From assembly GCA_031459715.1 (NCBI GenBank), contig JAVKIA010000001.1, positions 144,824 through 208,823 on the forward strand: DNA of 64,000 nt. The letters run 5' to 3'. The position numbers and the translations under genes were made by a program. Under the pieces are notes generated by a model. It was not told the origin of the DNA. It did no database searches and was given only the letters and a program-made list of their open reading frames with translations. Below are positions 37,267 through 63,073 of the stretch, piece by piece. The first letter of the stretch is position 1, and each line of letters begins with the position of its first letter. Source of the stretch: Candidatus Humicultor tengchongensis (GTDB lineage Bacteria; Sysuimicrobiota; Sysuimicrobiia; Sysuimicrobiales; Humicultoraceae).

Positions 37267-37271
37267 AGCCG

Positions 37272-39961: not shown

Positions 39962-40030
39962 GACCTCATCCGTTTGGGGAAAGAACGGCCGGCCGCTGGA
40001 CCCTGCCGGGGCCCGCGGCCGGCACCCACC

Positions 40031-41697: not shown

Positions 41698-42405
41698 ATG
41701 CTCTCTCTGGGAGACCTGGCCACGCAACTGGGCAAGCGGCGCAGCGCGCCTGACCTGGTGGCGGAGGTGCTGCGCGAGGCTATCCTCAGGGGGATTCTCC
41801 GCGGCGGGGAGCCTCTCCCCCAGGATGAGGTGGCGGCGCAGCTGGGCGTGAGCCGGATTCCCGTACGCGAAGCCCTGCGGCAGCTGGAGGCCGAGGGGCT
41901 GGTCAAGTTCAACCCACACCGCGCCGTGGTTGTCTCCGAACTCTCGGCCGCCGAGGTGGAGGAGATCTACGATATCCGCATTCCCCTGGAGTGCACCGCC
42001 CTCCGCCTGGCTCTCCCCCGCATCAGCGCCGAGGACCTGCGGCGGGCCGAGGCGATTCTGGAGGCCATCGACGCGGAGACGGACATCTTCCGCTGGAGCC
42101 AGCTGAACCGGGACTTTCACGCCGTTCTCTATACCCCGGCCAACCGCCCTCGCCTGCTGGACCTGATCAACACCATGCGAGCCAACGTCGACCGTTACAT
42201 GCGCATCTACATCTCGCTGCTTAACTTCAAGCCCCGGTCGCAGCAGGAGCATCGCCGCATCCTGGCAGCGGTGCGGCGGCGCGACACTCGCAGGGCCATC
42301 ACCGCCCTGGAGAGGCACCTGGGGGCGGCGTGCCGGGAACTGGTGGCGTATCTCTCCCGGGAACCTGTCTCTGCAGCGTCGCGCGCGCCCGGTCGCCCAG
42401 GGTAA
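41698..42405 (+). CDS. GntR-family transcriptional regulator (FadR/FCD subfamily)
   Basis: wHTH 'APDLVAEVLREAILRGILRGGEPLPQDEVAAQLGVSRIPVREALRQLEAEGLV' plus a C-terminal all-helical FCD domain. No obvious SD, so it may be leaderless. Confidence 0.8.
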   Translation: MLSLGDLATQLGKRRSAPDLVAEVLREAILRGILRGGEPLPQDEVAAQLGVSRIPVREALRQLEAEGLVKFNPHRAVVVSELSAAEVEEIYDIRIPLECTALRLALPRISAEDLRRAEAILEAIDAETDIFRWSQLNRDFHAVLYTPANRPRLLDLINTMRANVDRYMRIYISLLNFKPRSQQEHRRILAAVRRRDTRRAITALERHLGAACRELVAYLSREPVSAASRAPGRPG

Positions 42406-42446
42406 CCGCGACCGGCGCGCCTGGAGGGCGGTAGCGGCAACAAGGT

Positions 42447-43442
42447 GTGACGGTGGGCCGCTGGATGGTGCTGGTCACCGACTACGTTTTTCCTTCCCTG
42501 GAGGTGGAGCGGGCGGTCCTGCGGGCCGCCGGTGCCGAGCTGGTGGCCATGCAGGCGGGCAGCGAAGCCGAGCTGGCAGAGGCGGTGGGCAATGCAGATG
42601 GCCTGCTGGTCTGCTACGCCCCGGTCACGCGTCGGGTCATCGAGCGGGCACAGCGTTGTCGGGTCATCGCTCGCTACGGCATCGGCGTGGACAACGTGGA
42701 TGTAGATGCAGCTACAGAGCGGGGCATTGTGGTCACCAACGTGCCAGACTACTGCATCGAGGAGGTGAGCGACCACGCCCTGGCCCTGCTGCTGGCCTGC
42801 GCCCGTAAGGTGGCTTTCCTGGACCGGGGGGTGCGCGCCGGCCGCTGGGAGGCCAGAGACGCTGTGCCCATCCGCCGCCTGCGGGGGCAGGTGCTGGGGC
42901 TGGTGGGCTTCGGCAAGATCCCCCGGCTCCTGGCGGCCAAGGCGCGGGCCCTGGGCCTGACGGTGCTGGCCTACGACCCCTACCTGGATGCTGCCACCTG
43001 CGAGGCGTACGGAGCACGCCAGGTGGAGCTGGGGGAGCTGCTGGCCCGGGCCGACTTTGTTTCGGTGCACGCGCCCCTTACCCCGCAAACCAGGGGACTG
43101 ATCGGCGAGGCCGAGCTGCGCCGCATGAAGCCCACCGCCTACCTGATCAACACGGCGCGGGGCCCCATCGTCCACGAGGCGGCGCTGCTGCAGGCGCTGC
43201 AGGAGGGCTGGATCGCCGGGGCGGCGCTGGACGTCCTGGAGAGCGAGCCGCCGCCTGCCGGCCACCCCCTGCTGCAGGCCCCGCAGGTGGTTCTCACCCC
43301 CCATGTGGCCTTCTACTCCGAGGAGTCGCTGCAGGAGCTGCAACGCAAGGCGGCGGAGGAGGTGGCCCGGGTGCTCACGGGTCAACCGCCGCGCTACCCC
43401 GTGAACGTGGTCCAGGCACCAGGTACGAGAGGAGGGTCCTGA
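42447..43442 (+). CDS. D-isomer-specific 2-hydroxyacid dehydrogenase (NAD-binding)
   Basis: 'LGLVGFGKIPRLLAAKARALG' Rossmann motif. Catalytic 'TARGPIVHEAALLQAL' and 'LDVLESEP...LTPHVAFYS'. Confidence 0.8.
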   Translation: MTVGRWMVLVTDYVFPSLEVERAVLRAAGAELVAMQAGSEAELAEAVGNADGLLVCYAPVTRRVIERAQRCRVIARYGIGVDNVDVDAATERGIVVTNVPDYCIEEVSDHALALLLACARKVAFLDRGVRAGRWEARDAVPIRRLRGQVLGLVGFGKIPRLLAAKARALGLTVLAYDPYLDAATCEAYGARQVELGELLARADFVSVHAPLTPQTRGLIGEAELRRMKPTAYLINTARGPIVHEAALLQALQEGWIAGAALDVLESEPPPAGHPLLQAPQVVLTPHVAFYSEESLQELQRKAAEEVARVLTGQPPRYPVNVVQAPGTRGGS

Positions 43443-44707
43443 TGGCGACACCCTGGTTCAGCGAGCGGTGGTTCACCAGCCCGCACAACTTCAGCGAGGA
43501 GGTACGCGCCCAGCTCAGGTTCCCCCAGCAGATTATCTTCCACGACATCACCCTGCGGGACGGCGAACAGCAGGCGGGGGTGGTCTTCACCAGGGATGAC
43601 AAGATCCGCATCGCCGAGAAGCTGGCCGAGGCCGGGGTGCACCGCATCGAGGCGGGGATGGCCACAGTCTCCCCAGCGGACGAGGAGGCCATCCGGGAGA
43701 TCGTCAGGCGCCGCCTGGGCCCCAAGATCTTCGCCTTCTCCCGCTGTATGGTCTCGGACATCCAGCGGGCCGTGGACTGCGGCGTTGAGGGGGTGGTGGT
43801 AGAGATCCCCAGCAGCGAGCACATCATCGAGCTGGGCTACCAGTGGCCCCTGCAAAAGGCCATCGACCTCTCCGTGGAGGCCACCCGCTTCGCCCACGAG
43901 CAGGGGCTATACGTGGTCTTCTTCCCCATCGATGCCACCCGCGCCGAGCCGGGTTGGTTCCTGAACCTCATCGAGCAGGTGGCCACCCAGGGGCACATGG
44001 ACGCCCTGGTGCTGGTGGACACCTTCGGAGGCTCCTCGCCCCACGCCATCAGCTACTTCACCCGGCAGGTGCAAGCGCGCATCCACAAACCCCTGGAGGC
44101 CCACTTCCACGACGACTTCGGCATGGCGGTGGCCAATACGCTGATAGCCCTCTCCCTGGGGGTGGAGGTGGCGCATGTGACGGTCTCTTCCCTGGGGGAG
44201 CGCGCCGGCAACTGCGCCCTGGAGGACCTGGCCCTGGCCCTGCTCACCCTCTACGGCATCGACACGGGCCTGCGCACCGAGACCTTCTACGACCTCTCCC
44301 GCCTGGTGCGCGAGCTGGCCGGGATCACCCTGCCTCCAAACCGGCCCATCGTGGGCGACATGCTCTTTAAGGTGGAGTCGGGGATCATCGCCACCTGGCT
44401 GGCCCGCCTGCAGGAGAAGCGGCCGGTGGAGCTGTTTCCCTTCCACTGGGGACTGGTGGGCCAGCCCCCGGCGGAGATCGTACTGGGCAAGGGCAGCGGC
44501 CGCGATTCCATCCTATACTTCCTCAGCCGCCTGGGCTACGACCTGTCCCCCGGCGACCCGCGTGTCGACGAGCTGCTAGTGCGGGTGAAGGAGCACTCCC
44601 TGACCACCAAGCGGCTGCTTGGCGACGAGGAGTTCCGCGGCCTGGCCGAGTTGGTGCTGGGTCCTCCCGCCGCCGCGCCGACCGGCCGCGAGGTGCATCC
44701 CGGCTGA
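43442..44707 (+). CDS. HMGL-like (DRE-TIM metallolyase) family protein related to LeuA/NifV condensing enzymes
   Basis: 'FHDITLRDGEQQAGVVF' and the metal-binding 'HFHDDFGMAVANTL'. 421 aa, with no LeuA regulatory domain. Confidence 0.7.
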   Translation: MATPWFSERWFTSPHNFSEEVRAQLRFPQQIIFHDITLRDGEQQAGVVFTRDDKIRIAEKLAEAGVHRIEAGMATVSPADEEAIREIVRRRLGPKIFAFSRCMVSDIQRAVDCGVEGVVVEIPSSEHIIELGYQWPLQKAIDLSVEATRFAHEQGLYVVFFPIDATRAEPGWFLNLIEQVATQGHMDALVLVDTFGGSSPHAISYFTRQVQARIHKPLEAHFHDDFGMAVANTLIALSLGVEVAHVTVSSLGERAGNCALEDLALALLTLYGIDTGLRTETFYDLSRLVRELAGITLPPNRPIVGDMLFKVESGIIATWLARLQEKRPVELFPFHWGLVGQPPAEIVLGKGSGRDSILYFLSRLGYDLSPGDPRVDELLVRVKEHSLTTKRLLGDEEFRGLAELVLGPPAAAPTGREVHPG

Positions 44708-44710
44708 TCC

Positions 44711-45718
44711 ATGGACACCGTGGATGTGCACAGCCACTTCTTCCCCCAGCCCTTCCTGCGGCTAATACGCTCCCACGGCGAGCCCCATGGGGCGTCGCTG
44801 CAGCGGCGGGAGGGGGTGGAGTGGTTGACCATGCCCGGGCATCCCCCGGTGCCGCTGGCGCCGCTGTTCGTGGACGCCGAGGCCCGCCGGGCCAGTCTGG
44901 AGCAGGCGGGGATTACCGCCCAGGCCCTCTCGCTGTCCCCGCCCATGGTCTACTGGGCGCCGCCCGACCTGGGTGTGGCTCTGGCCCAGGCCTTCAACGA
45001 CGGGATCAGCGAGCTGGCCCGGGCCTACCCGGATCAGTTCGTGGGGCTGGCCACGCTGCCGCTGCAGGACGTCCCGGCGGCGCTGCGGGAGATGGAGCGG
45101 GCCAGCACCCTGCAGATGCGGGGGGTCTACCTGGCCACCACGGTGCGGGGACGCTACCTGGATGCCCCGGAATTCGCCCCCCTGTGGGAGCTGGCCGTGG
45201 CCCTGGACCTCCCGGTGTTCATCCACCCCCAGACCCACCTGGGCGCCGATGTGCTGGCGCACTGCCACCTGTTCAACAGTGTGGGCTTCCCCGTGGAGAC
45301 TGCGGTGCTGGCGGCGCGCCTGATCTACGCTGGTACCTTCGACCGCTACCCGTCGCTGCGGGTGGTGCTGGCGCATGCCGGAGGGGTCCTGCCCATGCTG
45401 CTGGGACGACTGGACCACGCCCACCGGCAGCGTCCGGAGTGCCGGCAGGCCATCCAGGCGCCGCCGTCCTTTTACCTGCGACACTTCTACTTCGACACGG
45501 TGACCCACGACGACATCACCCTGCGGTTCCTGGTGCAGCGGGTGGGCATCCGGCAGGTGGTGCTGGGCAGCGACGCCCCCTATGACATGGCCGACGAGGG
45601 GCCTGTGGTCCGGGTACGCCGCCTGGGCCTGCAGCCGGAGGCGACGGCCTGCATTCTTGGCCGCACCGCCCGTCGGCTACTGCACTGGGAGCTCAAGCCT
45701 GCGGTGAAGGAGGGATGA
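44711..45718 (+). CDS. Amidohydrolase-2 family protein (ACMSD-like decarboxylase/hydratase)
   Basis: 'VDVHSHFFPQPF' HxH metal motif. 'FIHPQTH...AHAGGVLP...SDAPYD' matches PF04909 architecture. Confidence 0.75.
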   Translation: MDTVDVHSHFFPQPFLRLIRSHGEPHGASLQRREGVEWLTMPGHPPVPLAPLFVDAEARRASLEQAGITAQALSLSPPMVYWAPPDLGVALAQAFNDGISELARAYPDQFVGLATLPLQDVPAALREMERASTLQMRGVYLATTVRGRYLDAPEFAPLWELAVALDLPVFIHPQTHLGADVLAHCHLFNSVGFPVETAVLAARLIYAGTFDRYPSLRVVLAHAGGVLPMLLGRLDHAHRQRPECRQAIQAPPSFYLRHFYFDTVTHDDITLRFLVQRVGIRQVVLGSDAPYDMADEGPVVRVRRLGLQPEATACILGRTARRLLHWELKPAVKEG

Positions 45719-46980
45719 GTATGGCCTACCACGAGTTTCTTCAGGGATATCACGAGTACCAGCCGCGGCGCGTCTACAGCACCACCGCCACCGACTGGCA
45801 GGGACGTGTGGACTTCGCCCGCATGCGCGCCGCCCGTCTGCAGCGGGCGCGGGAGCAGATGGAGCGCCACGGCCTGGGCGGGCTGGTGCTGTTCGTGGGG
45901 GAGAACATCCGCTATGTGACCGGCGTCTGGCAGGGCAACTGGAAAAACAACATTTTCATCCGCTACTGCGTCCTTCCCCGCGGCGGCCAGCCGGTGCTCT
46001 TCGAGACCGTGGGCTCTGACATGGTCTGCGCCCAGATTGACGCCCCCTGGCTGGAGACCGAAGTGCGCCCCGCCATTACCTGGAAGTGGTCGGAGGGGGC
46101 GGAGCCGGAGATGGCTCAGCGCATGGCCCAGAGCGTCTACGACGTGCTGCGGGAGCACGGGGTGCACATGGAGCGCATCGGCATCGACGTCATGGACATG
46201 ATGGCCTACCAGGCGCTGACCGGGCTGGGGCTGAACATCGTCAACGCCTGGCCGGCCATGTCCGCCGCCAGGGTGATCAAGACCCCGGACGAGATCGAGT
46301 GTCTGAAGATCTCCGCCGCCCACGGGGATGCGGCCATGTGGATGGCTATGCACGAGTGGGCCAAGCCCGGCGTGCGCGAGTCTGAGGTCTGCGCCAAGGT
46401 CAACGAGTACCTCTACCGCAGCGGGTTCGACTTCGTCTACGACATCATCGTGGCCAGCGGAGGCAACACCAGCCCCTACCGCCGCTGGCACACCGACAAG
46501 GTGATCCGCCAGGGCGACCTGATGATCGTGGACATCAACGCCGTGGGGCCGGGGGGTTACTTCATCGACTTCGTCCGCTGCTGGAAGGTGGCGGCCAAGC
46601 CCACTCCGCAGGAGAAGGACCTGTTCAAGCGCTGCTACGACTCGCTTTACGCCGGCATCGCCGCCATGAAGCCTGGCGCCACCACGGCGGATGTGGCGGC
46701 GCAGTTCCCCGAGTACGACGACGACAAGTACGGCAGCGTCAGCCTGCAGCAGTTCGCCCACAGCATCGGCCTGTCGCTGTACGAGGGCATGTGGGTGTCC
46801 CGCGCCTACTCCTTCAAGTATCCGGCCGAGATCAAACAGAACATGTACTTCGCCATCGAGACCTTCAGTGGCTTCCCCGGCCTGGAGCAGACGGTACGCC
46901 TGGAGGAGAACATCTGCATCACCGACAAGGGGGCGGAGCGCTTCACCCTGTGCGAGCACCCGGAGTACTGGTGGGACTGA
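45715..46980 (+). CDS. M24 metallopeptidase-family hydrolase (creatinase/prolidase-like, with creatinase N-domain)
   Basis: 'GDLMIVDINAVGPGGYFIDFVRCW' and 'HSIGLSLYEGMWVS', with 'ENICITDKG' in the M24 pita-bread fold. Its ATG overlaps the upstream stop. Confidence 0.75.
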   Translation: MSMAYHEFLQGYHEYQPRRVYSTTATDWQGRVDFARMRAARLQRAREQMERHGLGGLVLFVGENIRYVTGVWQGNWKNNIFIRYCVLPRGGQPVLFETVGSDMVCAQIDAPWLETEVRPAITWKWSEGAEPEMAQRMAQSVYDVLREHGVHMERIGIDVMDMMAYQALTGLGLNIVNAWPAMSAARVIKTPDEIECLKISAAHGDAAMWMAMHEWAKPGVRESEVCAKVNEYLYRSGFDFVYDIIVASGGNTSPYRRWHTDKVIRQGDLMIVDINAVGPGGYFIDFVRCWKVAAKPTPQEKDLFKRCYDSLYAGIAAMKPGATTADVAAQFPEYDDDKYGSVSLQQFAHSIGLSLYEGMWVSRAYSFKYPAEIKQNMYFAIETFSGFPGLEQTVRLEENICITDKGAERFTLCEHPEYWWD

Positions 46981-47044
46981 GTGGGGGTGGCGGCGGAATG
47001 GTCCCCTATGGCAGGCGGGGCGATTGGTGCGATCGGGGTGAGCG

Positions 47045-47899
47045 ATGGAGTTCTGGGTAGGGCAGACGCTGAATGGGCTCTCCTTTGGGGCTCTTCTCTT
47101 TCTGCTGGCCAGCGGGCTCTCATTGATGTTTGGGTTGATGCGCATCGTCAACATCGCCATCGGCTCCTACTACCTGATCGGTGCCTACGTGGCCCTTTCG
47201 GCACTGAAGTTCAGCGGGCAGCTGGGCTTGGCGCTGCTGGGGGCGGTGGCGGCCGTAGCGCTCATCGGCGTGGGTATGCAGCGTTTCCTGCTGGCACGGT
47301 TCCACGCGGAGCCACAGCCTCAAGTCCTGCTCACCATGGGTGCGGCCTTCATGTTCGCTGACATCGCGCTCTGGCTGTGGGGGGGCGACCCCCAGCGCCT
47401 CCCCACGCCAAGAATGGTCGCCTTCTCCGTGGAGATCGGCCCCTCGGTCTTCCCTGCCTACCGCCTGGTTGTGATCGCGGTAGGCGTGCTGGTGTACCTG
47501 TTCCTGTGGCTGATCCAGGAGCGAACCCGCTTGGGGGCCATTGTCCGCGCGGCGGTGGACGACCAAGAGATGGCCAGGGGGCTGGGGATCAACGTGGGAC
47601 GGATTCTCACCGCCATGTTCGCTGTGGGCGCAGGCCTGGCGGCACTGGCGGGCGTGGTGGGCGGGCCGTTCCTGGGCGTCTACCCGGGGGCCGATTTCGA
47701 GGTTATCCCGCTCGCCTTCGCCGTAGTGATCATCGGCGGGCTGGGCAGCTTGCATGGCGCGCTGGCCGGAAGCCTGCTGGTGGGACTGGTGGACAACTTT
47801 GGGAAGGCGCTCTTCCCCGAGCTGTCCTACTTCACGCTGTTCCTGCCCATGGCGCTGGTGCTGGCCATCCGGCCCACCGGGCTTTTCGGGAAGGGGTGA
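47045..47899 (+). CDS. livH: Branched-chain amino-acid ABC transporter permease
   Basis: LivH-type TM protein. It is followed directly by livM, a PBP, livG and livF. Confidence 0.8.
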   Translation: MEFWVGQTLNGLSFGALLFLLASGLSLMFGLMRIVNIAIGSYYLIGAYVALSALKFSGQLGLALLGAVAAVALIGVGMQRFLLARFHAEPQPQVLLTMGAAFMFADIALWLWGGDPQRLPTPRMVAFSVEIGPSVFPAYRLVVIAVGVLVYLFLWLIQERTRLGAIVRAAVDDQEMARGLGINVGRILTAMFAVGAGLAALAGVVGGPFLGVYPGADFEVIPLAFAVVIIGGLGSLHGALAGSLLVGLVDNFGKALFPELSYFTLFLPMALVLAIRPTGLFGKG

Positions 47900-48948
47900 G
47901 CTCACTGCGCAGCGTCCTGCGGGTGCTCCGTCCCGTGGCGCTGGCCGCCCTGGCCGCTGCCTTTCTGGTCGTGCCACGGATCGTGCCGGTCTACTTCGTA
48001 CACCTCCTCATCCTGACGCTCGTCTACGGCACCATGGCCATGAGCCTGGACCTGCTTATGGGCTACACCGGGCTGGTCTCCTTCGGTCACGCAGCGTACT
48101 TCGGGGTCGGGGGCTATACCGTGGGAATCCTGGCACTGCGCTATGGCCTGCCCACGCTGGCCGCGGGGGTGGGCGGGGTGCTGGTGGCCTTCGTGCAGGC
48201 CCTGCTGTTTGGCCTGGTGGCACTCCGAGCCACCGCCGTCTACTTTCTGATCATCACACTGGCCCTGGGCATGGCGACGTGGGGTCTGGCCTACCGCTGG
48301 GTCTCTCTCACCGGGGGTGACAACGGACTGGCGGGGATCCCTCCGCCGGAGGTGGGGTTGCCCTGGTCGCTGAGCGATCCCACCAACCTCTACTACCTGA
48401 TCCTGGGTGTGGTGGTCCTGGCCGCGCTGGTTCTTTACCGGTTCGTGAGATCGCCGTTCGGGCTCAGTCTGCGGGGCATCCGGGAGAGCGAGTCTCGCAT
48501 GCGGGTGCTGGGCTATAACACCTGGGCTCACAAGTACGTGGCCTTCGTGGTGGCCGGAACTTTCTCCGGGCTCGGTGGCGTCCTCTACGTCTTCTACAAC
48601 GGCTTCGTCAGCCCCGCGGACGTCCACCTGACCGGTTCCGCGGAAGCCGTCCTCATGGTGCTGCTGGGCGGGTCCGGCACGCTCTTTGGTCCCGTGATCG
48701 GCGCGGGAGTTGTGGTCTTCCTGCGCAACCTGGTCAGTGCTTACACCCACCGCTGGCTGCTGATTCTGGGGCTGGTGTACGTGCTCACCGTGCTCTACGC
48801 GCCGCGCGGCATCCTGGGTGCGGCGCAGGAGTTGTGGAGGCGCCTGGAGCGGGCGGTGGTGAGGGAAGCGGAGCCCAGGGCGGAGGTGAGACCCATAGAG
48901 GAGGTTGCACCGCAACAGAATCCCACTGGAGGGGAGGAGAGCGTATGA
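47896..48948 (+). CDS. livM: Branched-chain amino-acid ABC transporter permease
   Basis: GTG overlaps the livH stop (GTGA). LivM-type TM protein. Confidence 0.8.
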   Translation: MSSLRSVLRVLRPVALAALAAAFLVVPRIVPVYFVHLLILTLVYGTMAMSLDLLMGYTGLVSFGHAAYFGVGGYTVGILALRYGLPTLAAGVGGVLVAFVQALLFGLVALRATAVYFLIITLALGMATWGLAYRWVSLTGGDNGLAGIPPPEVGLPWSLSDPTNLYYLILGVVVLAALVLYRFVRSPFGLSLRGIRESESRMRVLGYNTWAHKYVAFVVAGTFSGLGGVLYVFYNGFVSPADVHLTGSAEAVLMVLLGGSGTLFGPVIGAGVVVFLRNLVSAYTHRWLLILGLVYVLTVLYAPRGILGAAQELWRRLERAVVREAEPRAEVRPIEEVAPQQNPTGGEESV

Positions 48949-50195: not shown

Positions 50196-50223
50196 TAAGG
50201 CGGAGGCGCCCCCGGGAGGTGCG

Positions 50224-50985
<762 letters not shown>

Positions 50986-50986
50986 A

Positions 50987-51697: not shown

Positions 51698-51729
51698 AGC
51701 GCAACAGGAAGCGGGAAGAGGGGATACGG

Positions 51730-52611: not shown

Positions 52612-52639
52612 GGACCTGGCCATGAAGAGGAGGTGAGCC

Positions 52640-53836: not shown

Positions 53837-53845
53837 AGGCCCGGT

Positions 53846-55623: not shown

Positions 55624-55689
55624 ATGGCCATGGAGGGTTGCGCCTCGCACGGGCGGCCGTAGGGCTGGCCCCAAGCGACGCGGAGTGTA

Positions 55690-56574: not shown

Positions 56575-56606
56575 CTGGCCATACGGATGCACCGGCGAGA
56601 GCGGTC

Positions 56607-57860
56607 GTGGTGATCCTGGGAACGCTGGACACCAAGGGGGAGGAATGCCGGTACCTGAGGAGGGCTGTGGAGGCTCTTGGCGGCAGGACCCTGCTGCTGG
56701 ACGTGAGCTGCCTCCACGCGGCGGGCGGCTCAGACGTCGACATCTCCGCCGAGCGCGTCGCCGCTGCGGCGGGGATGTCGTTTGCCCAGGTGGCGGCCAT
56801 GCCCCGGCGCGAGGCGGTGGAGGTCATGGGGCGCGGTGCTGCTGAGATCCTTGAGCAGCTGATCCGCGAGGGGCGGGTAGCGGCCGCCATTGCGCTGGGT
56901 GGCGCCAACGGGTCGCGGCTGGCAGCCCGGGCCGTGGCGCCGCTCCCTCTGGGGATGCCCAAGGTGCTGGTGGCGGTCGTGGGAGCTACCGACCTCACCG
57001 CACTTGTCGGCCCACGGGACATAACGGTCGTGAACGCAGTCTGCGACATTTCGCTGAATCCGATCACCCGACCCATCCTCCGCCAGGCTGCCGCCGCGGT
57101 GCTGAAGATGAGCACAGTGCCCAGGGACGAGCCGGGAGCCGCGCCCACTGTGGCCATGTCGGTACTCGGCGTAACGCAGGCGGCCGCCGAGGCGTGCCGC
57201 CGCCTCCTGGAGGCTGGCGGGGAAGAAGTCGCCGCCTTCCACGCCAACGGCGTCGGTGGACGGGCCCTGGAGGCCGCGATCCTCGACGGCCGGATCGCCC
57301 GGGCGGTGGAGTTGACGCCGAGTGAGCTGATCAACCACCTCGTGGGCGGCGTCTTCTCTGCGGGGGAAGGGCGGATGGACGCCGCTATCGCGCGAGGGCT
57401 CCCCCTGGTGGTCATCCCCGGAGCCATCGACTTCGTGAACTTCTGGACCGGGCGGGTGCCGGAGCGGTTCGCCGGACGACGATTTCTCCAGTACACGGAG
57501 CAGAATGTCCTCATGCGGACCAGCAAGGAGGAGATCGGGGCCTTCGGCGTCCTGCTGGCGGCGAAGCTGAACCGGGTGCGCCGGCCGGCAGCGGTCGCCA
57601 TCCCTACACGGGGGTTCTCCCGGTTCGACCACGCGGACGGACCGGAAGCCCGCACCCTCCGAGGAGAGGCGGCGGGCCCATGGTTCGACCCGGAGGCCGA
57701 TGCCGTCTTTGGGCAGGCGCTTGAGGGCGGCCTGCGCACCGACCTGGTACGCGCGGTATTCGTACCCTACCATATCAACGATCCCGGCTTCGCGGAGGTG
57801 GTGGTGGGACTGCTGGACGAAGTTACGTTGGAATGCAAGGGACGGGCTGGGCGATGGTGA
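56607..57860 (+). CDS. UPF0261 family protein (Tm-1-like N-terminal domain)
   Basis: The N-terminus 'VVILGTLDTKGEECRYLRRAVEALGG' is the family hallmark. 417 aa. Immediately downstream of its TIM-barrel partner. Confidence 0.7.
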   Translation: MVILGTLDTKGEECRYLRRAVEALGGRTLLLDVSCLHAAGGSDVDISAERVAAAAGMSFAQVAAMPRREAVEVMGRGAAEILEQLIREGRVAAAIALGGANGSRLAARAVAPLPLGMPKVLVAVVGATDLTALVGPRDITVVNAVCDISLNPITRPILRQAAAAVLKMSTVPRDEPGAAPTVAMSVLGVTQAAAEACRRLLEAGGEEVAAFHANGVGGRALEAAILDGRIARAVELTPSELINHLVGGVFSAGEGRMDAAIARGLPLVVIPGAIDFVNFWTGRVPERFAGRRFLQYTEQNVLMRTSKEEIGAFGVLLAAKLNRVRRPAAVAIPTRGFSRFDHADGPEARTLRGEAAGPWFDPEADAVFGQALEGGLRTDLVRAVFVPYHINDPGFAEVVVGLLDEVTLECKGRAGRW

Positions 57861-58633
57861 CGCGACGAGCGCTGATCAGGCGGGCGGGCGACCGGGCGGA
57901 GCATTTCCGCCAGCAGGGTTTTCACTGTTCGGAGGCCGTCCTTCGGGGGGCGGCGGCGGCGCTGGGCCTGCGGCCGGATGAGGCCCTCCTGAGGGCCTGC
58001 ACGGGGTTGCGCGGGGGCGGCGGGGGGTACGGGGACCGCTGCGGCGCGCTAGAGGCTGGCGCGATGCTCATTGGGTGGATCTTCGGCCGCAGGCGGTCGG
58101 AGGAGGACAACTCCTGTGCCAGCGCGCTCGTGCACTGGCTGCACGAGCGGTTCGTACGGGAGCTAGGCAGCACCTCTTGCCGGGTCCTCAAGCCCCTGTC
58201 CCACGAGCAGTGGAGCAAGGACTTCTCATGCGGCCCGGTCTACCGCCGGGGCGCGGAGCTGGCCGTGCAGGCCATCCTCAGCGCCCACGAGCTCTCCCTG
58301 ACCTGCCCCCGTTTTGACCACCGCCGCCGGCGAGCACAGCGGGCACCGGTCCGGCGTGCGGAGGTCCTGGCTGCGCGGCGCCACATCAGAGCCCTGGCGC
58401 GCCGTGGAGAAATCCAGGTGGGCGCGGCGGTTCGCCACGCACAGGCACGCCTGGGGATTTCAGAAGAGGACATCTCGTACAGCTTGGCCACGGCTGTGCG
58501 TGTGCACCCGGCCGTGGGTGGACGTCTCGTGGTGGAGGGACGGCGCCGGGACCGCTGGTACCTGACGACGGTGGTGCAGCTCCGCCCATCGGGGGGCAGG
58601 CCCGATCGGGTGGAGGTGGTGGCGATCCTGTAA
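57854..58633 (+). CDS. C_GCAxxG_C_C family putative redox-active protein with an extra C-terminal ~100-aa region
   Basis: 'GFHCSEAV...ACTGLRGGGGGYGDRCGALEAGAMLIG' Cys/Gly signature. The ATG at 57854 overlaps the upstream stop (ATGGTGA). An alternative ATG lies at 57833. Confidence 0.6.
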   Translation: MVTRRALIRRAGDRAEHFRQQGFHCSEAVLRGAAAALGLRPDEALLRACTGLRGGGGGYGDRCGALEAGAMLIGWIFGRRRSEEDNSCASALVHWLHERFVRELGSTSCRVLKPLSHEQWSKDFSCGPVYRRGAELAVQAILSAHELSLTCPRFDHRRRRAQRAPVRRAEVLAARRHIRALARRGEIQVGAAVRHAQARLGISEEDISYSLATAVRVHPAVGGRLVVEGRRRDRWYLTTVVQLRPSGGRPDRVEVVAIL

Positions 58634-58692
58634 GGCGACGACGACCTGCATCGACCTAGTGCCATGGCGGCGCGGTGGAAGAGGTGGTGGGG

Positions 58693-59145
58693 GTGGGCGT
58701 CGTAGTCAGGCAGCTGGAGAACTTCTTCACCCTGGTGACCGTGGAGGGGAGCCATCACGTCCTGGTGGGGGACGAGCCCGTGCACAGTGGGGGCACCGAC
58801 AGGGGGCCCAGTCCCTTCAATCTGTTCCTGGCCGCGCTCGGGACCTGAACCGCCGTCACCCTCGTGGGCGTGGCCCGCGAATTCCAGATACCGCTGGAGG
58901 GGCTCCAGGTGCGCGTCAGCCACAAGCAGAATCTCCTCGTAGGCGGCCCCAACGACCCCCAGCAGCGACAGATGCGCATCACGGAACTCTACCGGCACAT
59001 CAGTGTCCGCGGTCCCATCACAGAGGAAGAACGGGAGCGGCTCCTGTGGGGCGCGGAGCACTGCCCCGTCCACAACTCTATCAGCGCCGCCATCCCCATC
59101 CGAACCACGATCGCCGTCTTACAGGAGGGGGCGTCCCGTGGCTAG
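58693..59145 (+). CDS. OsmC/Ohr-family peroxiredoxin-like gene with an in-frame TGA (58846-58848) at the first catalytic-Cys position: selenoprotein candidate or pseudogene
   Basis: One frame reads '...GGTDRGPSPFNLFLAALGT[TGA]TAVTLVGVAREF...LLWGAEHCPVHNSISAAIP...'. The second OsmC cysteine motif (CPxxN) is intact, and the frame stays open for 99 codons after the TGA. GTG start candidates at 58675-58693, the last with an SD 'gaggtggtgg'. Confidence 0.5.
58862..58880 (+). promoter_or_regulatory. Stable hairpin 13 nt 3' of the in-frame UGA (8-bp stem UCGUGGGC/GCCCGCGA, GUG loop): candidate bacterial SECIS-like element
   Basis: Stem arms 58862-58869 / 58873-58880, with G and U in the apical loop. 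Distance from the UGA is comparable to bacterial SECIS geometry. Confidence 0.3.
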
Positions 59146-59265
59146 GGGGGCGCCGACCGATTCGCCGTCGGCGTTCCCCCGGGCCGGCGAAGTGTTCCGG
59201 CTGCGGACGGAGCGCCTCCGGATCGGGGTCGGCTCCAGCAAGCCCCCCGTGCAGGGGTGATGTGG

Positions 59266-59979
59266 ATGAAGCGGGCGCTGGTGACGGGTGCCGGCGGGGG
59301 CATCGGGCAGGCGATCGTCCGTGCCCTTTTGGACGCCGGCTACCGGGTGATCGCCACTGACCGGGATGCGGATGCGCTCCGTTCCCTGCAGGGCGTCGTG
59401 ACTCCACAGGAGACCAGCGTGCTGGACGTGGCCGATGTTTCGTCCATCGCCGCATGCTTTGCCCGAGTAGAGCCGGTGGACGTGCTGGTAAACTGCGCCG
59501 GGGTCCAGATCCGGCGCCCCGCGCTGGAGGTAACCCCCGAGCAGTGGGACCACATTCACGCGGTGAACCTGCGCGGGCTCTTCTTCTGCTCGCAGGCCGC
59601 GGCACAGTCCATGGCCCGGCGCGGCGGAGGTGTCATTATCAACGTCGCCTCCATCCTGGGCGTCGTGGGCCGTCAGCACAATGCCGCCTACGCCGCCAGC
59701 AAAGGGGGCATCGTAGCGCTGACCCGTACCCTGGCGGTGGAGTGGGCTCCCCTGGGGATCAGGGTGAACGCCATAGCCCCGGGGCTGGTGTGGACGCCCA
59801 TGACCGCTGACCTCCGCCAGGATCCCGTGGTCTACGCTGACGTACTGCGCCGGATCCCCGTAGGCCGGTTCGCCACCCCCGAGGAGATTGCTCCGACCGT
59901 GGTCTTCCTGGCGTCCGATGACGCGCGGTATGTCACCGGGGAGGTATTCGTGGTAGACGGCGGGTACACCGCCCAGTAG
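59266..59979 (+). CDS. SDR-family oxidoreductase
   Basis: 'ALVTGAGGGIGQAI' cofactor motif and catalytic 'YAASKGGIVALTR'. The ATG at 59266 has an SD agggg; upstream GTG/ATG alternatives exist. Confidence 0.8.
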   Translation: MKRALVTGAGGGIGQAIVRALLDAGYRVIATDRDADALRSLQGVVTPQETSVLDVADVSSIAACFARVEPVDVLVNCAGVQIRRPALEVTPEQWDHIHAVNLRGLFFCSQAAAQSMARRGGGVIINVASILGVVGRQHNAAYAASKGGIVALTRTLAVEWAPLGIRVNAIAPGLVWTPMTADLRQDPVVYADVLRRIPVGRFATPEEIAPTVVFLASDDARYVTGEVFVVDGGYTAQ

Positions 59980-60125
59980 CCGGAAGGAGAGAGGAGATGG
60001 CACGCCGGAGGGTCACCGTGACGCAACCTTTGCGGCACCGGCGTATGCGAGCGGAGGTCGACGGTCCACCCTGAACTGGTGGGCAACCGCAGGGTGCTGA
60101 AGTCTTTGACCAAAGGAGGCAGCAT

Positions 60126-61163
60126 ATGTTCGCACAGGTGCTGCACCGCTGGGGAGGAGCGCTCTCCTATGAGGAGGTTCCGGTGCCTGTTCCGGCTCCC
60201 GGGGAGGCGCTAGTGAGGGTGGAGGCGTGCGGCGTGGGGCTGACGGTCCTGAACTACATGCGCGGTGATCTCCGGCAGCCCGGGCCGGGGCTGCCCCGCA
60301 TCCCCGGGCACGAGATCGTGGGCCGGGTAGAAGCCCTGGGCGACGGTACCACCGGGCTCGATCCTGGGGATCGAGTGATGGCCTACTTCTATCTAACATG
60401 CGGGCATTGCGATTTCTGCCGGCTGGCGCATGAGCCCCTTTGCCGCAACTTCGGGGGGTACGTGGGGGTGAACCGCGACGGCGGCTATGCGGAGTACGTG
60501 AGCCTGCCGGTGGCCAACTGGCTGCCTGTGCCCAAGGAGATCCCCGCTGTAGAGGCCACGGCGATTCCGGACGCCATCGCCACCCCCTATCACGTCTGCC
60601 GGCGGGCGGGCATTGGTACCGGCGACCTGGTCATGGTGGTAGGGGCGGGAGGCGGTGTCGGTATCCACATGGTACAGATGGTGCGGGCGTTCGGCGGCGA
60701 AGCCGTCGGTGTCGACCTGGGCGAGGCGAAGCTCCAGGCGATCCGCGCGGCCGGGGCGATGGCCGCGGTGGACTTCCGTGCCGGGGATAGGCTGGACCGA
60801 ATCCGTGCGGTCGCGCCCGCAGGGGTGACGGCAGCCATCGACTTCGTGGGGTCGCCGGAAACCCTGGCCTTCTGCCTGGAGGCGCTGGGCCGTCGCGGGC
60901 GACTGGTGCTGCTGACTACCTTTCCTGGTGTGGAGTTCCCTGTAAGCCCTCGTCAGATGGTCTTCGACGAGCTGACGGTGCTGGGCTCGCGCTACACCTC
61001 TCGCTGGGAGCTGATGCAGGCTGCGCGTCTGGTGGCGCGGGGTGCAATCAGGCCCGTGGTCTCTGAGGTGGTCCCCCTGGCTGCGGTGGAGACGCTGCAT
61101 AACAAACTCCACGAGGGAACGCTGATCGGCCGGGGGGCCGTCCGCTGCCAGCCCCCGCTGTAG
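60126..61163 (+). CDS. Zinc-dependent alcohol dehydrogenase family (MDR) oxidoreductase
   Basis: SD AAGGAGG 6 nt upstream. 'CGVGLTVLNYMRGD...GHEIVGRV', structural-Zn 'CGHCDFCRLAHEPLC' and 'VVGAGGGVGIHMVQ'. Confidence 0.8.
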   Translation: MFAQVLHRWGGALSYEEVPVPVPAPGEALVRVEACGVGLTVLNYMRGDLRQPGPGLPRIPGHEIVGRVEALGDGTTGLDPGDRVMAYFYLTCGHCDFCRLAHEPLCRNFGGYVGVNRDGGYAEYVSLPVANWLPVPKEIPAVEATAIPDAIATPYHVCRRAGIGTGDLVMVVGAGGGVGIHMVQMVRAFGGEAVGVDLGEAKLQAIRAAGAMAAVDFRAGDRLDRIRAVAPAGVTAAIDFVGSPETLAFCLEALGRRGRLVLLTTFPGVEFPVSPRQMVFDELTVLGSRYTSRWELMQAARLVARGAIRPVVSEVVPLAAVETLHNKLHEGTLIGRGAVRCQPPL

Positions 61164-61196
61164 ACGGAGGGCACCGGTCGGGGGGATGACGCGGTG

Positions 61197-62978
61197 ATGG
61201 CACGGCGGACCGGAGGGAAGATGCCGCGGCGGGGGACGAACCCGCTGCAAAGGAGCGTCACAGTGGATGGCATGCACATCGACTACGACGTTCCCATCCC
61301 CATGGACGACGGAGTGATCCTGCGGGCCGACGTCTTCCGCCCTGCGGTCGAGGGCCGTTACCCTGTCATCCTCAGCTATGGGCCCTATGCCAAGGGCCTC
61401 CCCTACCAGGTGGGCTACCCCGACCAGTGGCACGCGTTGGTCCGCGACTTCCCCGAGGTGGCCCGGGGGTCGACCTGCCGCTACCAGAACTGGGAAGTGG
61501 TGGACCCGGAGAAGTGGGTCCCGCACGGCTACGCCTGCGTGCGCGTGGACTCCCGGGGTGCGGGGCGCTCTCCAGGCCTCCTGGACATCTTCTCCCCGCG
61601 GGAGACGCGCGACTTCGCCGCCTGCATCGAGTGGGCGGCCGGCCAGCCCTGGAGCAGCGGGAGGGTGGGCCTGAACGGGATCTCCTACTACGCCATCAAC
61701 CAGTGGCTGGTGGCCGGGTTGCAACCCCCGCACCTGGCCGCCATCTGCGCCTGGGAGGGGGCGGCCGACTACTACCGCGACTGGCACCGCCACGGCGGCA
61801 TTCTGTGCACCTTCACCGGTGCCTGGTTCAAGGCGCAGGTGGAGACGGTGCAGCACGGCGTGGGGGCCCGCGGTCCGGTAAACCCGCATACCGGCGAGCT
61901 GGTCGCCGGTCCGGAGACCCTGCCCGAGCACGAGCTGGCCCAGAACCGGGTGGACCCGCTGCGCCAGGCCCTGCTGCGTGAGCTGGACGGCCCGTGGTAC
62001 CGGGAGCGGTCGGCGGACTGGTCGCGGATCACCGTGCCCTTGCTTTCAGCGGGCAACTGGGGCGGACAGGGGCTGCACCTGCGGGGCAACGTGGAGGCGT
62101 TCGTCCGTGCAGCCTCGGCCCAAAAGTGGCTGGAGATCCACGGGCACGCGCACTGGACGCACTTCTCCACCGACTACGGCCTGGCGCTGCAGCGACGGTT
62201 CTTCGACCACTTCCTCAAAGGACTGGACAACGGGTGGGAGCGGGAGCCGCGGGTCCTGCTAAACATCCGCCGCGTCGACGGGTTCGTCCTGCGCAAAGAG
62301 CACGAATGGCCCCTGGCCCGTACCCGCTGGACAAGGTTGTACCTGGACCCGGCACGGCGGACGCTGGGACAGGAGCCGCCGGCGGCCCAGAGCTGGGTGG
62401 AGTACGCACCGCTACAGGAGGGGGTGGCCTTCCGCACCCCCCCGTTTGAGGCGGAGACGGAGATCACCGGCCCGCTGGCGGCCAGGCTCTTCATCGCCTC
62501 CACCACATCCGACGCCGACCTGTTCCTGGTGATCCGGCTGCTGGACCCCTCCGGGGTGGAGGTTACGTTTACCGGGGCGGTGGAGCCCCGCGCGCCCATC
62601 GCCCAGGGGTGGCTGCGGGCCTCGCACCGCAAGCTGGACCTGCACCTTAGCATGCCCTACCGCCCCTACCACACCCACGACGAGATCCAGCCGCTTGTCC
62701 CGGGCCGCGTCTACGAGGTGCAGGTGGAGATCTGGCCTACCTGCATCGTCGTCCCCCCCGGCTACTCGCTGGAGCTGCTGGTGCAGGGGAGGGACTTCCA
62801 GCGGGAGATGCCCAGCGGGGACCTGGGGCCCTGGTCGGGACTGCGGGGCTCGGGGCCCTTCCTGCACGACCACCCCTGGGACCGGCGCCCGGAGGTCTAT
62901 GGCGGGCAGGTCCGGGTGTACGGTGGGGGCGACACGGCTTCCTACCTGCTGCTGCCGGTCATCCCCGGTGAGGCCTGA
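61197..62978 (+). CDS. CocE/NonD-family alpha/beta hydrolase (S15 X-Pro dipeptidyl-peptidase-like)
   Basis: 'PMDDGVILRADVFRP', 'YPVILSYGPY', the nucleophile elbow 'GLNGISYYA' and a C-terminal beta-sandwich domain. The start is uncertain (GTG 61194, ATG 61197 or ATG 61221). Confidence 0.75.
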   Translation: MARRTGGKMPRRGTNPLQRSVTVDGMHIDYDVPIPMDDGVILRADVFRPAVEGRYPVILSYGPYAKGLPYQVGYPDQWHALVRDFPEVARGSTCRYQNWEVVDPEKWVPHGYACVRVDSRGAGRSPGLLDIFSPRETRDFAACIEWAAGQPWSSGRVGLNGISYYAINQWLVAGLQPPHLAAICAWEGAADYYRDWHRHGGILCTFTGAWFKAQVETVQHGVGARGPVNPHTGELVAGPETLPEHELAQNRVDPLRQALLRELDGPWYRERSADWSRITVPLLSAGNWGGQGLHLRGNVEAFVRAASAQKWLEIHGHAHWTHFSTDYGLALQRRFFDHFLKGLDNGWEREPRVLLNIRRVDGFVLRKEHEWPLARTRWTRLYLDPARRTLGQEPPAAQSWVEYAPLQEGVAFRTPPFEAETEITGPLAARLFIASTTSDADLFLVIRLLDPSGVEVTFTGAVEPRAPIAQGWLRASHRKLDLHLSMPYRPYHTHDEIQPLVPGRVYEVQVEIWPTCIVVPPGYSLELLVQGRDFQREMPSGDLGPWSGLRGSGPFLHDHPWDRRPEVYGGQVRVYGGGDTASYLLLPVIPGEA

Positions 62979-63073
62979 TCCCTGGAGGCGGTGATGGAGG
63001 AAACCTTGTTGCGTATAGTCGGCCGCTCGCAGATGGTGGCCGCACTGGAGCTCCTGCGCCAGGAGGTCTCACC

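Follow-up and report, generated by a model that had tools for sequence, protein, structure and literature searches.

A Modular Gene Cluster with a Cross-Phylum M24 Metallohydrolase Core, Probably for the Breakdown of an N-Containing Organic Acid, in Candidatus Humicultor tengchongensis

We analyzed a stretch of 64,000 nucleotides, called the window below, from contig JAVKIA010000001.1 of the hot-spring metagenome-assembled genome (MAG) of Candidatus Humicultor tengchongensis (assembly GCA_031459715.1). Using Pfam searches and gene calls, we located 22 genes there, all on the plus strand, which run from position 41698 to beyond 64000. It turned out that these genes contain a conserved core: an M24 metallohydrolase, a D-isomer-specific 2-hydroxyacid dehydrogenase (2HADH), an enzyme resembling isopropylmalate synthase (IPMS) and homocitrate synthase, and an ACMSD-type enzyme. 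Together with zinc-dependent alcohol dehydrogenases (Zn-ADH) of the medium-chain dehydrogenase/reductase (MDR) type and short-chain dehydrogenases/reductases (SDR), this core travels across distant phyla. The genes for a PuuE-like hydrolase, an acyl-CoA dehydrogenase (ACAD), a PEP_hydrolase/UPF0261 pair, a CocE-type hydrolase and a C_GCAxxG_C_C protein are accessory, and each of them also recurs near the core elsewhere. The 22 genes probably belong together as a single modular catabolic cluster with linked functions, controlled by a GntR/FCD regulator, which would serve an organic acid with amide or lactam nitrogen. That a carboxylated N-heteroaromatic (or lactam) acid, more precisely one of the pyridine/pyridone type, serves as the substrate and is broken down independently of oxygen is a serious possibility which falls somewhat short of an even chance. 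Nicotinate or hydroxynicotinate specifically is an unlikely substrate. No described pathway matches the cluster, and the first-pass annotation could not assign it to one; no curated family model accounts for it either.

Conservation of the Core Across Phyla

The search with the M24 protein returned 1474 homologues, the best 120 of which are 69–92% identical to it. A scan of one genome per species yielded 212 encoded M24 relatives, and the census of neighbors was made on the best 79 loci (66–99% identity). Neighbors were found in two ways, by tblastn with the 22 window proteins and by a window-independent clustering of all open reading frames (ORFs), and the recurrent neighbors agree. The 79 loci span seven bacterial phyla, with members in Armatimonadota, Bacillota (including Thermaerobacter, Symbiobacteriaceae and Halanaerobiales), Actinomycetota (including Solirubrobacterales, Thermoleophilia and Gaiellaceae), Dormibacterota, Spirochaetota, Planctomycetota and Acetobacteraceae. 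Close relatives of the window are labelled Armatimonadota in the genome collection. Near the M24 gene, 2HADH is found at 51 of the 79 loci, Zn-ADH at 39, the IPMS-like enzyme (Pfam HMGL-like) at 34, the ACMSD-type enzyme (Pfam Amidohydro_2) at 33 and SDR at 31. A second M24 paralogue follows with 26 loci and a LIV-type permease with 21. The GntR/FCD regulator of the window type occurs at 13 loci and a second GntR/FCD type at 10; isochorismatase, GFO_IDH_MocA and an HTH-cupin regulator are present at 10 each, CocE and FAA hydrolase at 8 each, an adenine-deaminase-like gene at 7 and ACAD at 5. At the 35 loci with full 10-kb flanks, the fractions are 66% for 2HADH, 57% for Zn-ADH, 54% for SDR, 46% each for the HMGL-like and Amidohydro_2 enzymes, and 40% for the second M24.

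The order of these genes varies by phylum. It is 2HADH-HMGL-M24 in Bacillota, M24-2HADH-SDR-...-HMGL in Actinomycetota and ZnADH-M24-2HADH-SDR-ACAD-Amidohydro_2-...-HMGL in Dormibacterota. A core that is kept through such rearrangement bears the signature of functional linkage. A Haloarcula plasmid also encodes M24 and 2HADH proteins, 64% and 51% identical to those of the window. The whole arrangement is preserved closer to the window. Two sister MAGs have the same genes in the same order, and locus L090, a distinct relative from a JGI metagenome, shows the complete order GntR-2HADH-HMGL-Amidohydro_2-M24-LivHMKGF-PuuE-ACAD-EtfBA-PEP_hydrolase-UPF0261-C_GCAxxG-split OsmC-SDR-ZnADH, with 65–99% amino-acid identity to the window proteins. 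Because this order is shared with both the sister MAGs and L090, the arrangement goes beyond chance. Thus, the accidental juxtaposition that the first-pass annotation had named as the way for its cluster to fail is contradicted by the whole order in L090 and by the core across phyla. Its picture of a single 21-kb unit holds as regards co-conservation. It does not hold as regards uniformity, since the cluster is modular, with a widespread core, accessory genes and lineage-specific EtfBA and OsmC genes.

Modularity of the Cluster

The modules are combined differently in more distant relatives. Locus L088 has the order 2HADH-HMGL-Amidohydro_2-M24-Liv-amidase-PuuE-CocE-cyclase-2HADH'-ZnADH-ZnADH-M24b-Amidohydro_1, and the ACAD, ETF and UPF0261 block is absent from its cluster. 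The amidase of L088, preceded by a small ORF, is AtzE-like (418 bits, cut-off 461), its Amidohydro_1 protein is allantoinase-like (AllB-like; 321 bits, cut-off 358), and its second 2HADH is glyoxylate-reductase-like (348, cut-off 455). In L011 and L010, the genes from PuuE through UPF0261 are missing, and CocE, C_GCAxxG or the second Zn-ADH is retained. The loci L004, L094 and L134 read Liv-isochorismatase-ZnADH1-ZnADH2-Amidohydro_1-PuuE/ACAD-CoA transferase-carboxyltransferase. Every module except EtfBA and OsmC adjoins M24 orthologues in at least one distant lineage. EtfBA accompanies the cluster only in L090, L001 and L002, and both OsmC and EtfBA were seen only in the window's own lineage. 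The divergence from L007 and L090 is a mosaic: M24 is 99% identical and its neighbors 91–95%, and the Liv, PuuE and EtfBA proteins are 56–81% identical. The G+C content of the window is about 70% and dips to 0.656–0.671 at 46–54 kb. The mosaic divergence together with this dip suggests that parts of the cluster were exchanged by recombination or cassette replacement.

These observations also bear on another explanation, namely that the 22 genes are an island of two or three independent operons lying side by side (core with importer; PuuE-ACAD-ETF; UPF0261, TIM barrel and redox genes; SDR, ADH and CocE) and not one pathway. The mosaic divergence and the G+C dip would fit it, as would L011, L010 and L088, in which ACAD, Etf, PEP_hydrolase and UPF0261 are missing. 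PuuE homologues at 57–60% identity lie in unrelated contexts, which points the same way. With PuuE as the anchor, three homologues at 57–71% identity have heterogeneous neighborhoods, and the cluster appears only at 75% identity or more. The ACAD subfamily, too, occurs mostly with Zn-ADH away from M24. Its commonest metagenome neighbor is a gene of the first Zn-ADH type (at least 12 loci, often without M24), and the ACAD-anchored loci are mostly this pair in unrelated contexts (MmgE/PrpD, TctC), informative only for L094/L134 and the Dormibacterota-type loci. Junction lengths within the cluster range from −28 to +146 nt, with six overlapping, and the largest intergenic gaps (111 and 146 nt) leave room for internal promoters. 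However, no terminator-like site lies in the intergenic gaps and thus between the modules; all eight plus-strand sites are intragenic (shuffled expectation 5.6 ± 2.8). A sigma-70 promoter scan gave no sites and is uninformative for the host phylum. Genes from both ends of the cluster (2HADH and HMGL on the left; SDR, Zn-ADH and CocE on the right) neighbor M24 elsewhere, each module but EtfBA and OsmC does so in a distant lineage, and the full order is kept in L090. We therefore consider separate operons improbable, though somewhat less so than the two rival substrate classes discussed below.

Enzymes of the Core

The anchor of the core is the M24 protein (45715–46980), which combines the Pfam domains Creatinase_N and Peptidase_M24. 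Its orthologues across the seven bacterial phyla are 67–99% identical. All five metal ligands of the pita-bread fold are invariant (D273, D285, H349, E382 and E397). Creatinase itself has no M24 metal ligands. Because the five ligands are retained, the window protein should be a metallohydrolase, unlike creatinase. It scores 114 bits against the DddP model (cut-off 600) and 88 bits against the structure 4S01, with which the five metal ligands align. The scores against DoeA (58.6 bits, cut-off 613) and DoeA_2 (36.7 bits, cut-off 575) are lower still, so that by curated models the protein is neither DddP nor DoeA. The 2HADH (42447–43442; Pfam 2-Hacid_dh and 2-Hacid_dh_C) stays below all NCBIfam cut-offs; its orthologues near M24 are 45–92% identical and lie at a median distance of 47 nt.

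The IPMS/homocitrate-synthase-like protein (43442–44707) belongs to the DRE-TIM enzymes. Its best PDB matches are 3RMJ and 6KTQ (about 153 bits), and it can be aligned with IPMS and homocitrate synthase over its whole length. The metal-binding segments HDITLRDGEQ and HFHDDFG (RDGEQ and HxH ligands) are present and conserved in the orthologues. The HxxGxH segment carries the histidine that enolizes acetyl-CoA (His379 in MtIPMS). At this place the window protein reads FKVESGIIATW, where 3RMJ has FSHESGIHQDG and 6KTQ has FVHKAGVHVAG, so both histidines of the motif are gone. Almost all of the approximately 34 M24-linked orthologues (L007–L092) read [VI]E[SA]GI[IP]..W and thus also lack a histidine at both places. 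The scores against curated models are below the cut-off (LEU1_arch 296 of 485, NifV 280 of 463, LeuA_bact 183 of 599), and there is no LeuA_dimer domain. Because both motif histidines are lost, we infer that the enzyme cleaves or decarboxylates a 2-oxo acid. Judging from these motifs, it is unlikely to be a Claisen synthase, which narrows the choice between a LeuA/NifV-like lyase and a synthase that the first-pass annotation had left; the family assignment itself stands. The LeuA/NifV-like subfamily that databases name isopropylmalate/homocitrate synthase is thus probably mis-annotated as a synthase. The histidine-less subfamily always occurs in catabolic clusters with an M24 hydrolase.

The fourth core gene (44711–45718; Pfam Amidohydro_2) encodes an ACMSD-type enzyme, probably a non-oxidative decarboxylase. 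Human ACMSD (4IGN) is its best PDB match (166 bits), followed by LigW and the gamma-resorcylate and isoorotate decarboxylases. Enzymes of this group remove a carboxyl group from an sp2 carbon beside OH or NH2. The N-terminal HxH, the AHxGG histidine and the GR(I/L)xH segment are readable in the window protein, and no NCBIfam model matches it. Its stop codon overlaps the M24 start.

Importer and Accessory Genes

Downstream of M24 lie all five components of a LIV-type importer according to Pfam: two permeases (47045–47899 and 47896–48948; BPD_transp_2), a binding protein (48945–50195; Peripla_BP_6) and two ABC ATPases (50224–50985 and 50987–51697). The first-pass annotation had recognized these components and taken them for an amino-acid importer. 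The components are confirmed; the amino-acid type is not, as the binding protein is nearest to benzoate-derivative binders. It matches 4ZPJ with 236 bits and the R. palustris binders of benzoate derivatives 4EY3, 4EVQ, 4EVS and 4F06 with 110–190 bits. Urea/amide binders match much more weakly than these, and LivJ is weaker still (2LBP, 38 bits; curated Liv model 51 bits, cut-off 477). Other core loci use LIV-type, TRAP, NitT/TauT, SSF, MFS or Bmp-type uptake systems. The binding-protein matches and this variety suggest that the substrate is a small anion, not necessarily an amino acid.

The PuuE-like, perhaps cyclic-imidase-type hydrolase of the CE4 family (51730–52611; Pfam Polysacc_deac_1) scores 125 bits against the PuuE model TIGR03212 (cut-off 425). 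Only the general CE4 domain is recognized in it. It matches the PDB entries 3S6O, 1Z7A, 3CL6 and 3QBU, of which 1Z7A and 3CL6, both PuuE structures, give about 90 bits. The gene is part of the cluster in L090 and L088 and adjoins ACAD in L004 and L094. The ACAD-family flavoprotein (52640–53836; Pfam ACAD N, M and C domains) has orthologues, 42–46% identical, inside or next to the M24 core in Dormibacterota; in Solirubrobacterales, too, an ACAD gene lies beside M24. The window protein and its orthologues (L090, L004, L087 and L094–L153) read an invariant FLHSDGA where canonical ACADs carry the catalytic-glutamate motif (YEGT), so that Asp379 replaces the glutamate. The electron-transfer flavoprotein (ETF) genes follow: EtfB (53846–54643) and EtfA (54643–55623), with the Pfam domains ETF and ETF_alpha. 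Bifurcating ETFs are marked by the b-FAD motif DGDTAQVGP and the NAD motif RxFxG of EtfB (PMC9232219). The EtfB proteins of the window and L090 have ADWGWEQTGP in place of the first and lack the second. Whether EtfBA is bifurcating had been posed as a question in the first-pass annotation; by motif it is not, and we rejected this reading.

Next comes a PEP_hydrolase-like TIM barrel (55690–56574; PF09370, 327 bits) with its partner UPF0261 (56607–57860), an ATP-binding protein of the MarK/Tm-1 type and a probable small-molecule kinase. The latter has both UPF0261 domains (PF06792 and UPF0261_C, PF23189) and exceeds the cut-off of NF002674 (350.6 bits, cut-off 335). Its best PDB match is MarK (9MPY, 188 bits), and residues 7–11, LDTKG, correspond to the conserved N-terminal D-T-K (PMC12624787). 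The pair is kept in L090, L093 and L044; in the last, a Bacillota MAG, it stands beside GntR-ZnADH-M24.

Two putative redox genes lie downstream of UPF0261. The C_GCAxxG_C_C protein (57833–58633; PF09719) has homologues in the clusters of L090 (86%), L011 (65%) and L088 (62%). At 266 amino acids, it is longer than its 118-residue domain, with an arginine-rich C-terminal extension of about 120 residues. In its longest reading, the gene shares its first 28 nt with the end of UPF0261, and NCBIfam tags the family '(seleno)protein'. The OsmC-like ORF (58675–59145) is interrupted by an in-frame TGA (58846–58848) at the position of the catalytic (peroxidatic) cysteine of OsmC/Ohr (LAALGT-U-TAVTL), and the second cysteine (EHCPVH) is retained. 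Both the TGA and the frame are retained in L090 (17026–17496) and L093 (~3390–3860). A GC-rich hairpin of 8–9 bp starts 16 nt after the UGA and is the same in L090, with z-scores of only −0.7 and −2.1. The protein scores 62.8 bits against NF041052, the model of OsmC-related selenoproteins (cut-off 95), and neither tRNA-Sec nor sel genes lie within the window. The gene probably encodes a selenoprotein.

The right-hand part holds the SDR (59257–59979; adh_short_C2), the first Zn-ADH (60126–61163; ADH_N and ADH_zinc_N), the CocE/NonD (S15) alpha/beta hydrolase (61194–62978; Peptidase_S15 and PepX_C) and the second, IolM/Tdh-like Zn-ADH (62975–64000), whose NCBIfam matches are all below the cut-off. 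CocE/NonD reaches 246 bits against TIGR00976 (cut-off 66), and Bacillota, Actinomycetota and Armatimonadota have homologues of 59–79% identity in the vicinity of M24. Homologues of the second Zn-ADH (55–71%) lie downstream of the transporter in L010, L015, L019, L020, L088 and L004. Apart from this general CocE/NonD model and the 'hypothetical protein' UPF0261 subfamily model, no catabolic enzyme of the cluster reaches an NCBIfam cut-off. The cluster genes thus represent unnamed subfamilies.

Molybdenum Hydroxylases at Related Loci

Xanthine-dehydrogenase-family molybdenum (Mo) hydroxylases are encoded at 7 of the approximately 85 loci, five of which (L044, L031, L041/L174, L042 and L011) have the nicotinate-dehydrogenase type. 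In L174/L041, one strand reads 2HADH-M24-ZnADH-HMGL-GntR-XdhC-MoeA-ModA-ModB-MocA-NdhF-NdhS-NdhL, and L044 reads SSF-PEP_hydrolase-UPF0261-GntR-ZnADH-M24-NdhF-...-NdhL-NdhM. The split Mo subunits of L044 (419 and 333 amino acids) best match the E. barkeri nicotinate dehydrogenase 3HRD (332 bits), followed by 4-hydroxybenzoyl-CoA reductase (243). Ndh orthologues of 57–68% identity are found no more than 10 kb from M24 in L031, in L042 and in L011 from Armatimonadota. Other types of xanthine-dehydrogenase-family genes occur close to the cluster in L004 and on the Haloarcula plasmid, where M24 and 2HADH are found among subunits of this family, XdhC, SDRs, an amidohydrolase and a cyclase. Mo hydroxylases of this family hydroxylate N-heteroaromatic rings with water. 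Their recurrence is therefore the strongest pointer to an N-heteroaromatic substrate class. In L174 (DATIKW010000030.1, 6124–8763), an S58 (DmpA-type) peptidase, an ECF S component and the pantothenate kinase CoaX lie divergent from the 2HADH-M24-ZnADH-HMGL-Ndh genes, with CoaBC beyond; this was seen once.

The neighbors of the core elsewhere tell about the chemistry as well. Among the annotated recurrent M24 neighbors there is no aminotransferase, no other pyridoxal-phosphate (PLP) enzyme and no oxygenase. The extra hydrolases that recur belong to types which open rings or amides (AllB-like Amidohydro_1, AtzE-like amidase, isochorismatase, cyclase and CN_hydrolase). Since the extras are hydrolases and NAD(P) dehydrogenases, nitrogen apparently leaves by hydrolysis and the route is independent of oxygen. 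The first-pass annotation had suggested the breakdown of an N-containing or branched organic acid or amide. An N-containing acid or amide gains support from these data, and branched hydroxy-acids gain none. Of the further substrates that it had named, hydroxyproline, creatine or guanidino compounds and ectoine are likewise unsupported (DoeA 59 bits against 613; no PLP enzyme), and the Mo hydroxylases point to an N-heteroaromatic acid.

Proposed Route and Its Weighing

For a pyridine-type acid, such as nicotinate, 6-hydroxynicotinate or a related hydroxylated pyridine acid, the cluster could work as follows. The ABC system, whose binding protein resembles aromatic-acid binders, would import the substrate. 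Where a Mo hydroxylase is encoded (it is not in the window), it would add a water-derived OH beside the ring nitrogen and so form a lactam. The ACMSD-like enzyme may then take off a ring or enamine carboxyl, and the Zn-ADH and SDR enzymes may set the oxidation state of the ring. M24, in this lineage with the PuuE/imidase-like enzyme, would open the ring hydrolytically and let nitrogen out as ammonia, without an aminotransferase or oxygenase. The 2HADH would oxidize the resulting D-2-hydroxy (di)carboxylate. The histidine-less IPMS-like enzyme would cleave a C–C bond of the 2-oxo acid or decarboxylate it in a metal-dependent reaction, without condensation with acetyl-CoA. ACAD with the non-bifurcating ETF could dehydrogenate the carbon skeleton, for example in a glutaryl-CoA-type step, and UPF0261 with the TIM barrel could activate a hydroxyl or lactam oxygen with ATP. 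The C_GCAxxG protein and OsmC as a probable selenoprotein may provide redox protection. In its boldest form, this would be an undescribed oxygen-independent route for a pyridine-type acid, spread across phyla by gene transfer, with three new activities: a lactam-opening or de-amidating M24, a LeuA-family lyase or decarboxylase, and an ATP-dependent UPF0261/TIM-barrel activator. All of this together we regard as rather unlikely.

Several facts weigh against a pyridine-type substrate. Each functional step is assigned by family membership, and M24, the most conserved enzyme, has no known precedent on lactams. Mo hydroxylases are associated with the core at only 7 of approximately 85 loci, though many contigs end early, and no Mo hydroxylase gene is present in the window cluster. 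The window cluster also has no CoA ligase or CoA transferase to feed ACAD, which makes the substrate of ACAD uncertain. The adenine-deaminase-like genes, the Bmp-type nucleoside-like ABC systems and GFO_IDH_MocA with AP_endonuc_2 fit a purine/ureide or cyclitol-like substrate equally well. The core loci rely on different uptake systems and may therefore not all share one substrate. The two known nicotinate routes compared below also differ in central enzymes: the two flavin monooxygenases and the old yellow enzyme (OYE) reductase of the fungal route have no counterpart here, nor do the 6-hydroxynicotinate reductase, enamidase, B12-dependent 2-methyleneglutarate mutase, and dimethylmalate dehydratase and lyase of E. 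barkeri.

It is also conceivable, if quite unlikely, that the cluster degrades a ureide or hydantoin derived from purines or pyrimidines (of the allantoin, hydantoin or barbiturate type). PuuE- and AllB-like enzymes would then open the ring, M24, the amidase and isochorismatase would free urea or ammonia, and 2HADH with the LeuA-like enzyme would take glyoxylate, ureidoglycolate or tartronate. The PuuE-like protein of the window, the allantoinase-like Amidohydro_1 and AtzE-like amidase with scores near the cut-off, and the glyoxylate-reductase-like second 2HADH of L088 fit such roles. So do a RutB/BiuH-like isochorismatase at about 10 loci, the adenine-deaminase-like gene at 7, and the AllH domain and xanthine-dehydrogenase-type genes of L004. 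The Bmp/PnrA-type importer encoded divergently from the window cluster, with its ATPase type at 8 loci, agrees with this too. However, no model reaches its cut-off, PuuE is accessory and not core, and the window has neither allantoate or ureidoglycolate enzymes (M20 or ureidoglycolate lyase) nor urease or allophanate genes. Three to five alcohol dehydrogenases, the ACMSD-like decarboxylase, ACAD and the CocE esterase would have no role on a C2–C3 ureide skeleton. Among solved structures, moreover, nicotinate dehydrogenase matches the split Mo enzyme more closely than xanthine dehydrogenases do.

Another substrate could be an amide-linked hydroxy-acid or proline-type peptide (pantothenate, N-acyl amino acids, Xaa-Pro peptides or diketopiperazines). 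M24 and CocE/S15 would be true amidases or peptidases, 2HADH would oxidize a D-2-hydroxy acid such as pantoate, and the IPMS-like enzyme would cleave a 4-hydroxy-2-oxo acid to 2-oxoisovalerate. This has little probability. It would leave the co-operonic Mo hydroxylase and its cofactor-maturation genes, the ACMSD-like decarboxylase and the many ring hydrolases unexplained; it meets no aminotransferase or deaminase for the freed amino acid, and the binding protein is far from LivJ. What it does explain is that M24 and S15 are 'Xaa-Pro' peptidase families, that M24 keeps its metal ligands, that a LIV-type importer is present, and that the IPMS-like scaffold binds 2-oxo acids without the acetyl-CoA histidines. 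The L174 core, divergent from the S58 peptidase, ECF S component and CoaX, would fit as well, but that neighborhood is found only there. The SSF symporter of L044 is weakly PanF-like (78 bits, cut-off 328).

Other candidates were rejected: DddP/acrylate metabolism (DddP is the best model for M24 and AcrABC for ACAD/ETF, with all scores far below the cut-off and a poorly fitting habitat); the anaerobic phloroglucinol pathway, whose ring-opening enzyme is of the cyclase family and not M24 and whose TAL and TfD enzymes are absent; and ectoine, creatine and branched-chain amino-acid catabolism, for which scores are far below the cut-off, PLP enzymes are missing and the binding protein is unlike LivJ.

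Boundaries and Neighboring Genes

The cluster starts with the GntR/FCD regulator gene (41698–42405; Pfam GntR and FCD; NCBI gene call, 235 amino acids). A co-directional cluster of these families in this order had been described in the first-pass annotation; every family was verified with Pfam and NCBIfam, and the overlaps are present. Upstream lie genes for a DNA ligase and for propionyl-CoA carboxylase and methylmalonyl-CoA mutase, as well as a menaquinone operon, a LeuA/CimA-type gene of full length and a divergent Bmp/PnrA-type ABC importer. Because these genes are unrelated, the left boundary is real. The right boundary had been placed at 63000. The second Zn-ADH, which begins at 62975, is cut by the window end, so the cluster continues past 63000 and ends outside the window; a look beyond the window end with the first Zn-ADH protein gave only one Logan contig of 6.4 kb. 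The importer (36391–41692, minus strand) consists of a binding protein, a double-ABC ATPase and two permeases and is divergent from the GntR gene. Possibly it serves the cluster as a second importer, because the same ATPase type lies within 10 kb of M24 at 8 other loci. The menaquinone-biosynthesis-like operon (27210–34508) includes chorismate-binding MenF-like and thiamine-diphosphate-dependent MenD-like genes, and its last gene encodes a 743-residue fusion of an AMP-binding domain (MenE-like) and a UbiE-type methyltransferase.

Significance

If the pyridine-type reading is true, a widespread, unannotated gene set would explain the oxygenase-free recycling of N-heterocyclic vitamins, cofactors and related acids in uncultured, anaerobic or thermophilic lineages. 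The lineages concerned are Armatimonadota, Limnochordia-like Bacillota, Solirubrobacterales, Dormibacterota and a haloarchaeon. First functions would likewise be given to the M24 subfamily, 67–99% conserved across phyla, and to the LeuA-like subfamily labelled isopropylmalate/homocitrate synthase, and UPF0261 kinases would gain a second biochemical context. If this reading fails, the core remains a clearly bounded target in the search for new enzymes, and it is available in two cultured hosts, Thermaerobacter composti (CP132508, about 2.254–2.276 Mb) and Haloarcula sp. JP-L23 (plasmid CP050017, about 33–63 kb).

Comparison with Known Systems

In A. nidulans (hxn), nicotinate is converted to alpha-hydroxyglutarate by a Mo hydroxylase, an ene-reductase, an SDR, a cyclic imidase similar to PuuE, and an amidase (PMC9304392). 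The lower half of this route is paralleled by the PuuE-like, SDR, amidase (L088) and 2HADH genes. The cluster resembles the route in the Mo hydroxylase (here at related loci only), ring saturation, SDR-type oxidation, a PuuE/CIH-like imidase, an amidase and the hydrolytic release of nitrogen. A 2-hydroxy dicarboxylate end product like that of the fungus would suit the 2HADH of the cluster. However, the amidase is not in the window and is found only in L088, and the fungal product is the (S)-isomer, whereas this 2HADH family is D-specific. M24, ACMSD-like and IPMS-like enzymes, ACAD/ETF and UPF0261 are absent from the fungal route. The nicotinate fermentation of E. barkeri (NdhFSLM, 3HRD) is likewise independent of oxygen and opens the ring by hydrolysis with release of ammonia, and NdhL-like split L/M Mo subunits lie by M24 in related loci. 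The window cluster has no Pfam domains of a B12 mutase, an aconitase-type dehydratase or a lyase of the isocitrate lyase (ICL)/PEP-mutase family, and Ndh genes occur only in related loci. Of the enzymes that follow NdhFSLM in the E. barkeri nic cluster (Hnr, enamidase, Hgd, Hmd, the B12 mutase, Mii, DmdAB and Dml), none is present. A literature search for bacterial nicotinate clusters made up of these families (B. niacini) found nothing.

Ectoine degradation (DoeA with a deacetylase) and creatinase share with the cluster a creatinase-fold M24 protein for a C–N bond of a small non-peptide molecule, a second hydrolase, an ABC importer and a GntR-type regulator. They differ in that the DoeA scores are far below the cut-off, that no aminotransferase or aspartate-semialdehyde dehydrogenase is present here, and that the M24 metal ligands are kept here and not in creatinase. 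In the ACMSD superfamily, the decarboxylases have the same Amidohydro_2 fold and motifs, and translational coupling to an M24 hydrolase is undescribed for any member. For UPF0261, one activity is known, that of the ATP-dependent aromatic kinase MarK of Novosphingobium aromaticivorans (PMC12624787). The window protein has MarK (9MPY) as its best match and shares with it the D-T-K motif and a tie to aromatic-compound catabolism. MarK stands alone, beside a biotin carboxylase (acvCDEF), whereas the UPF0261 protein here has no carboxylase and has a PEP_hydrolase-like TIM barrel for a partner, a pairing that plant Tm-1 fusions also show.

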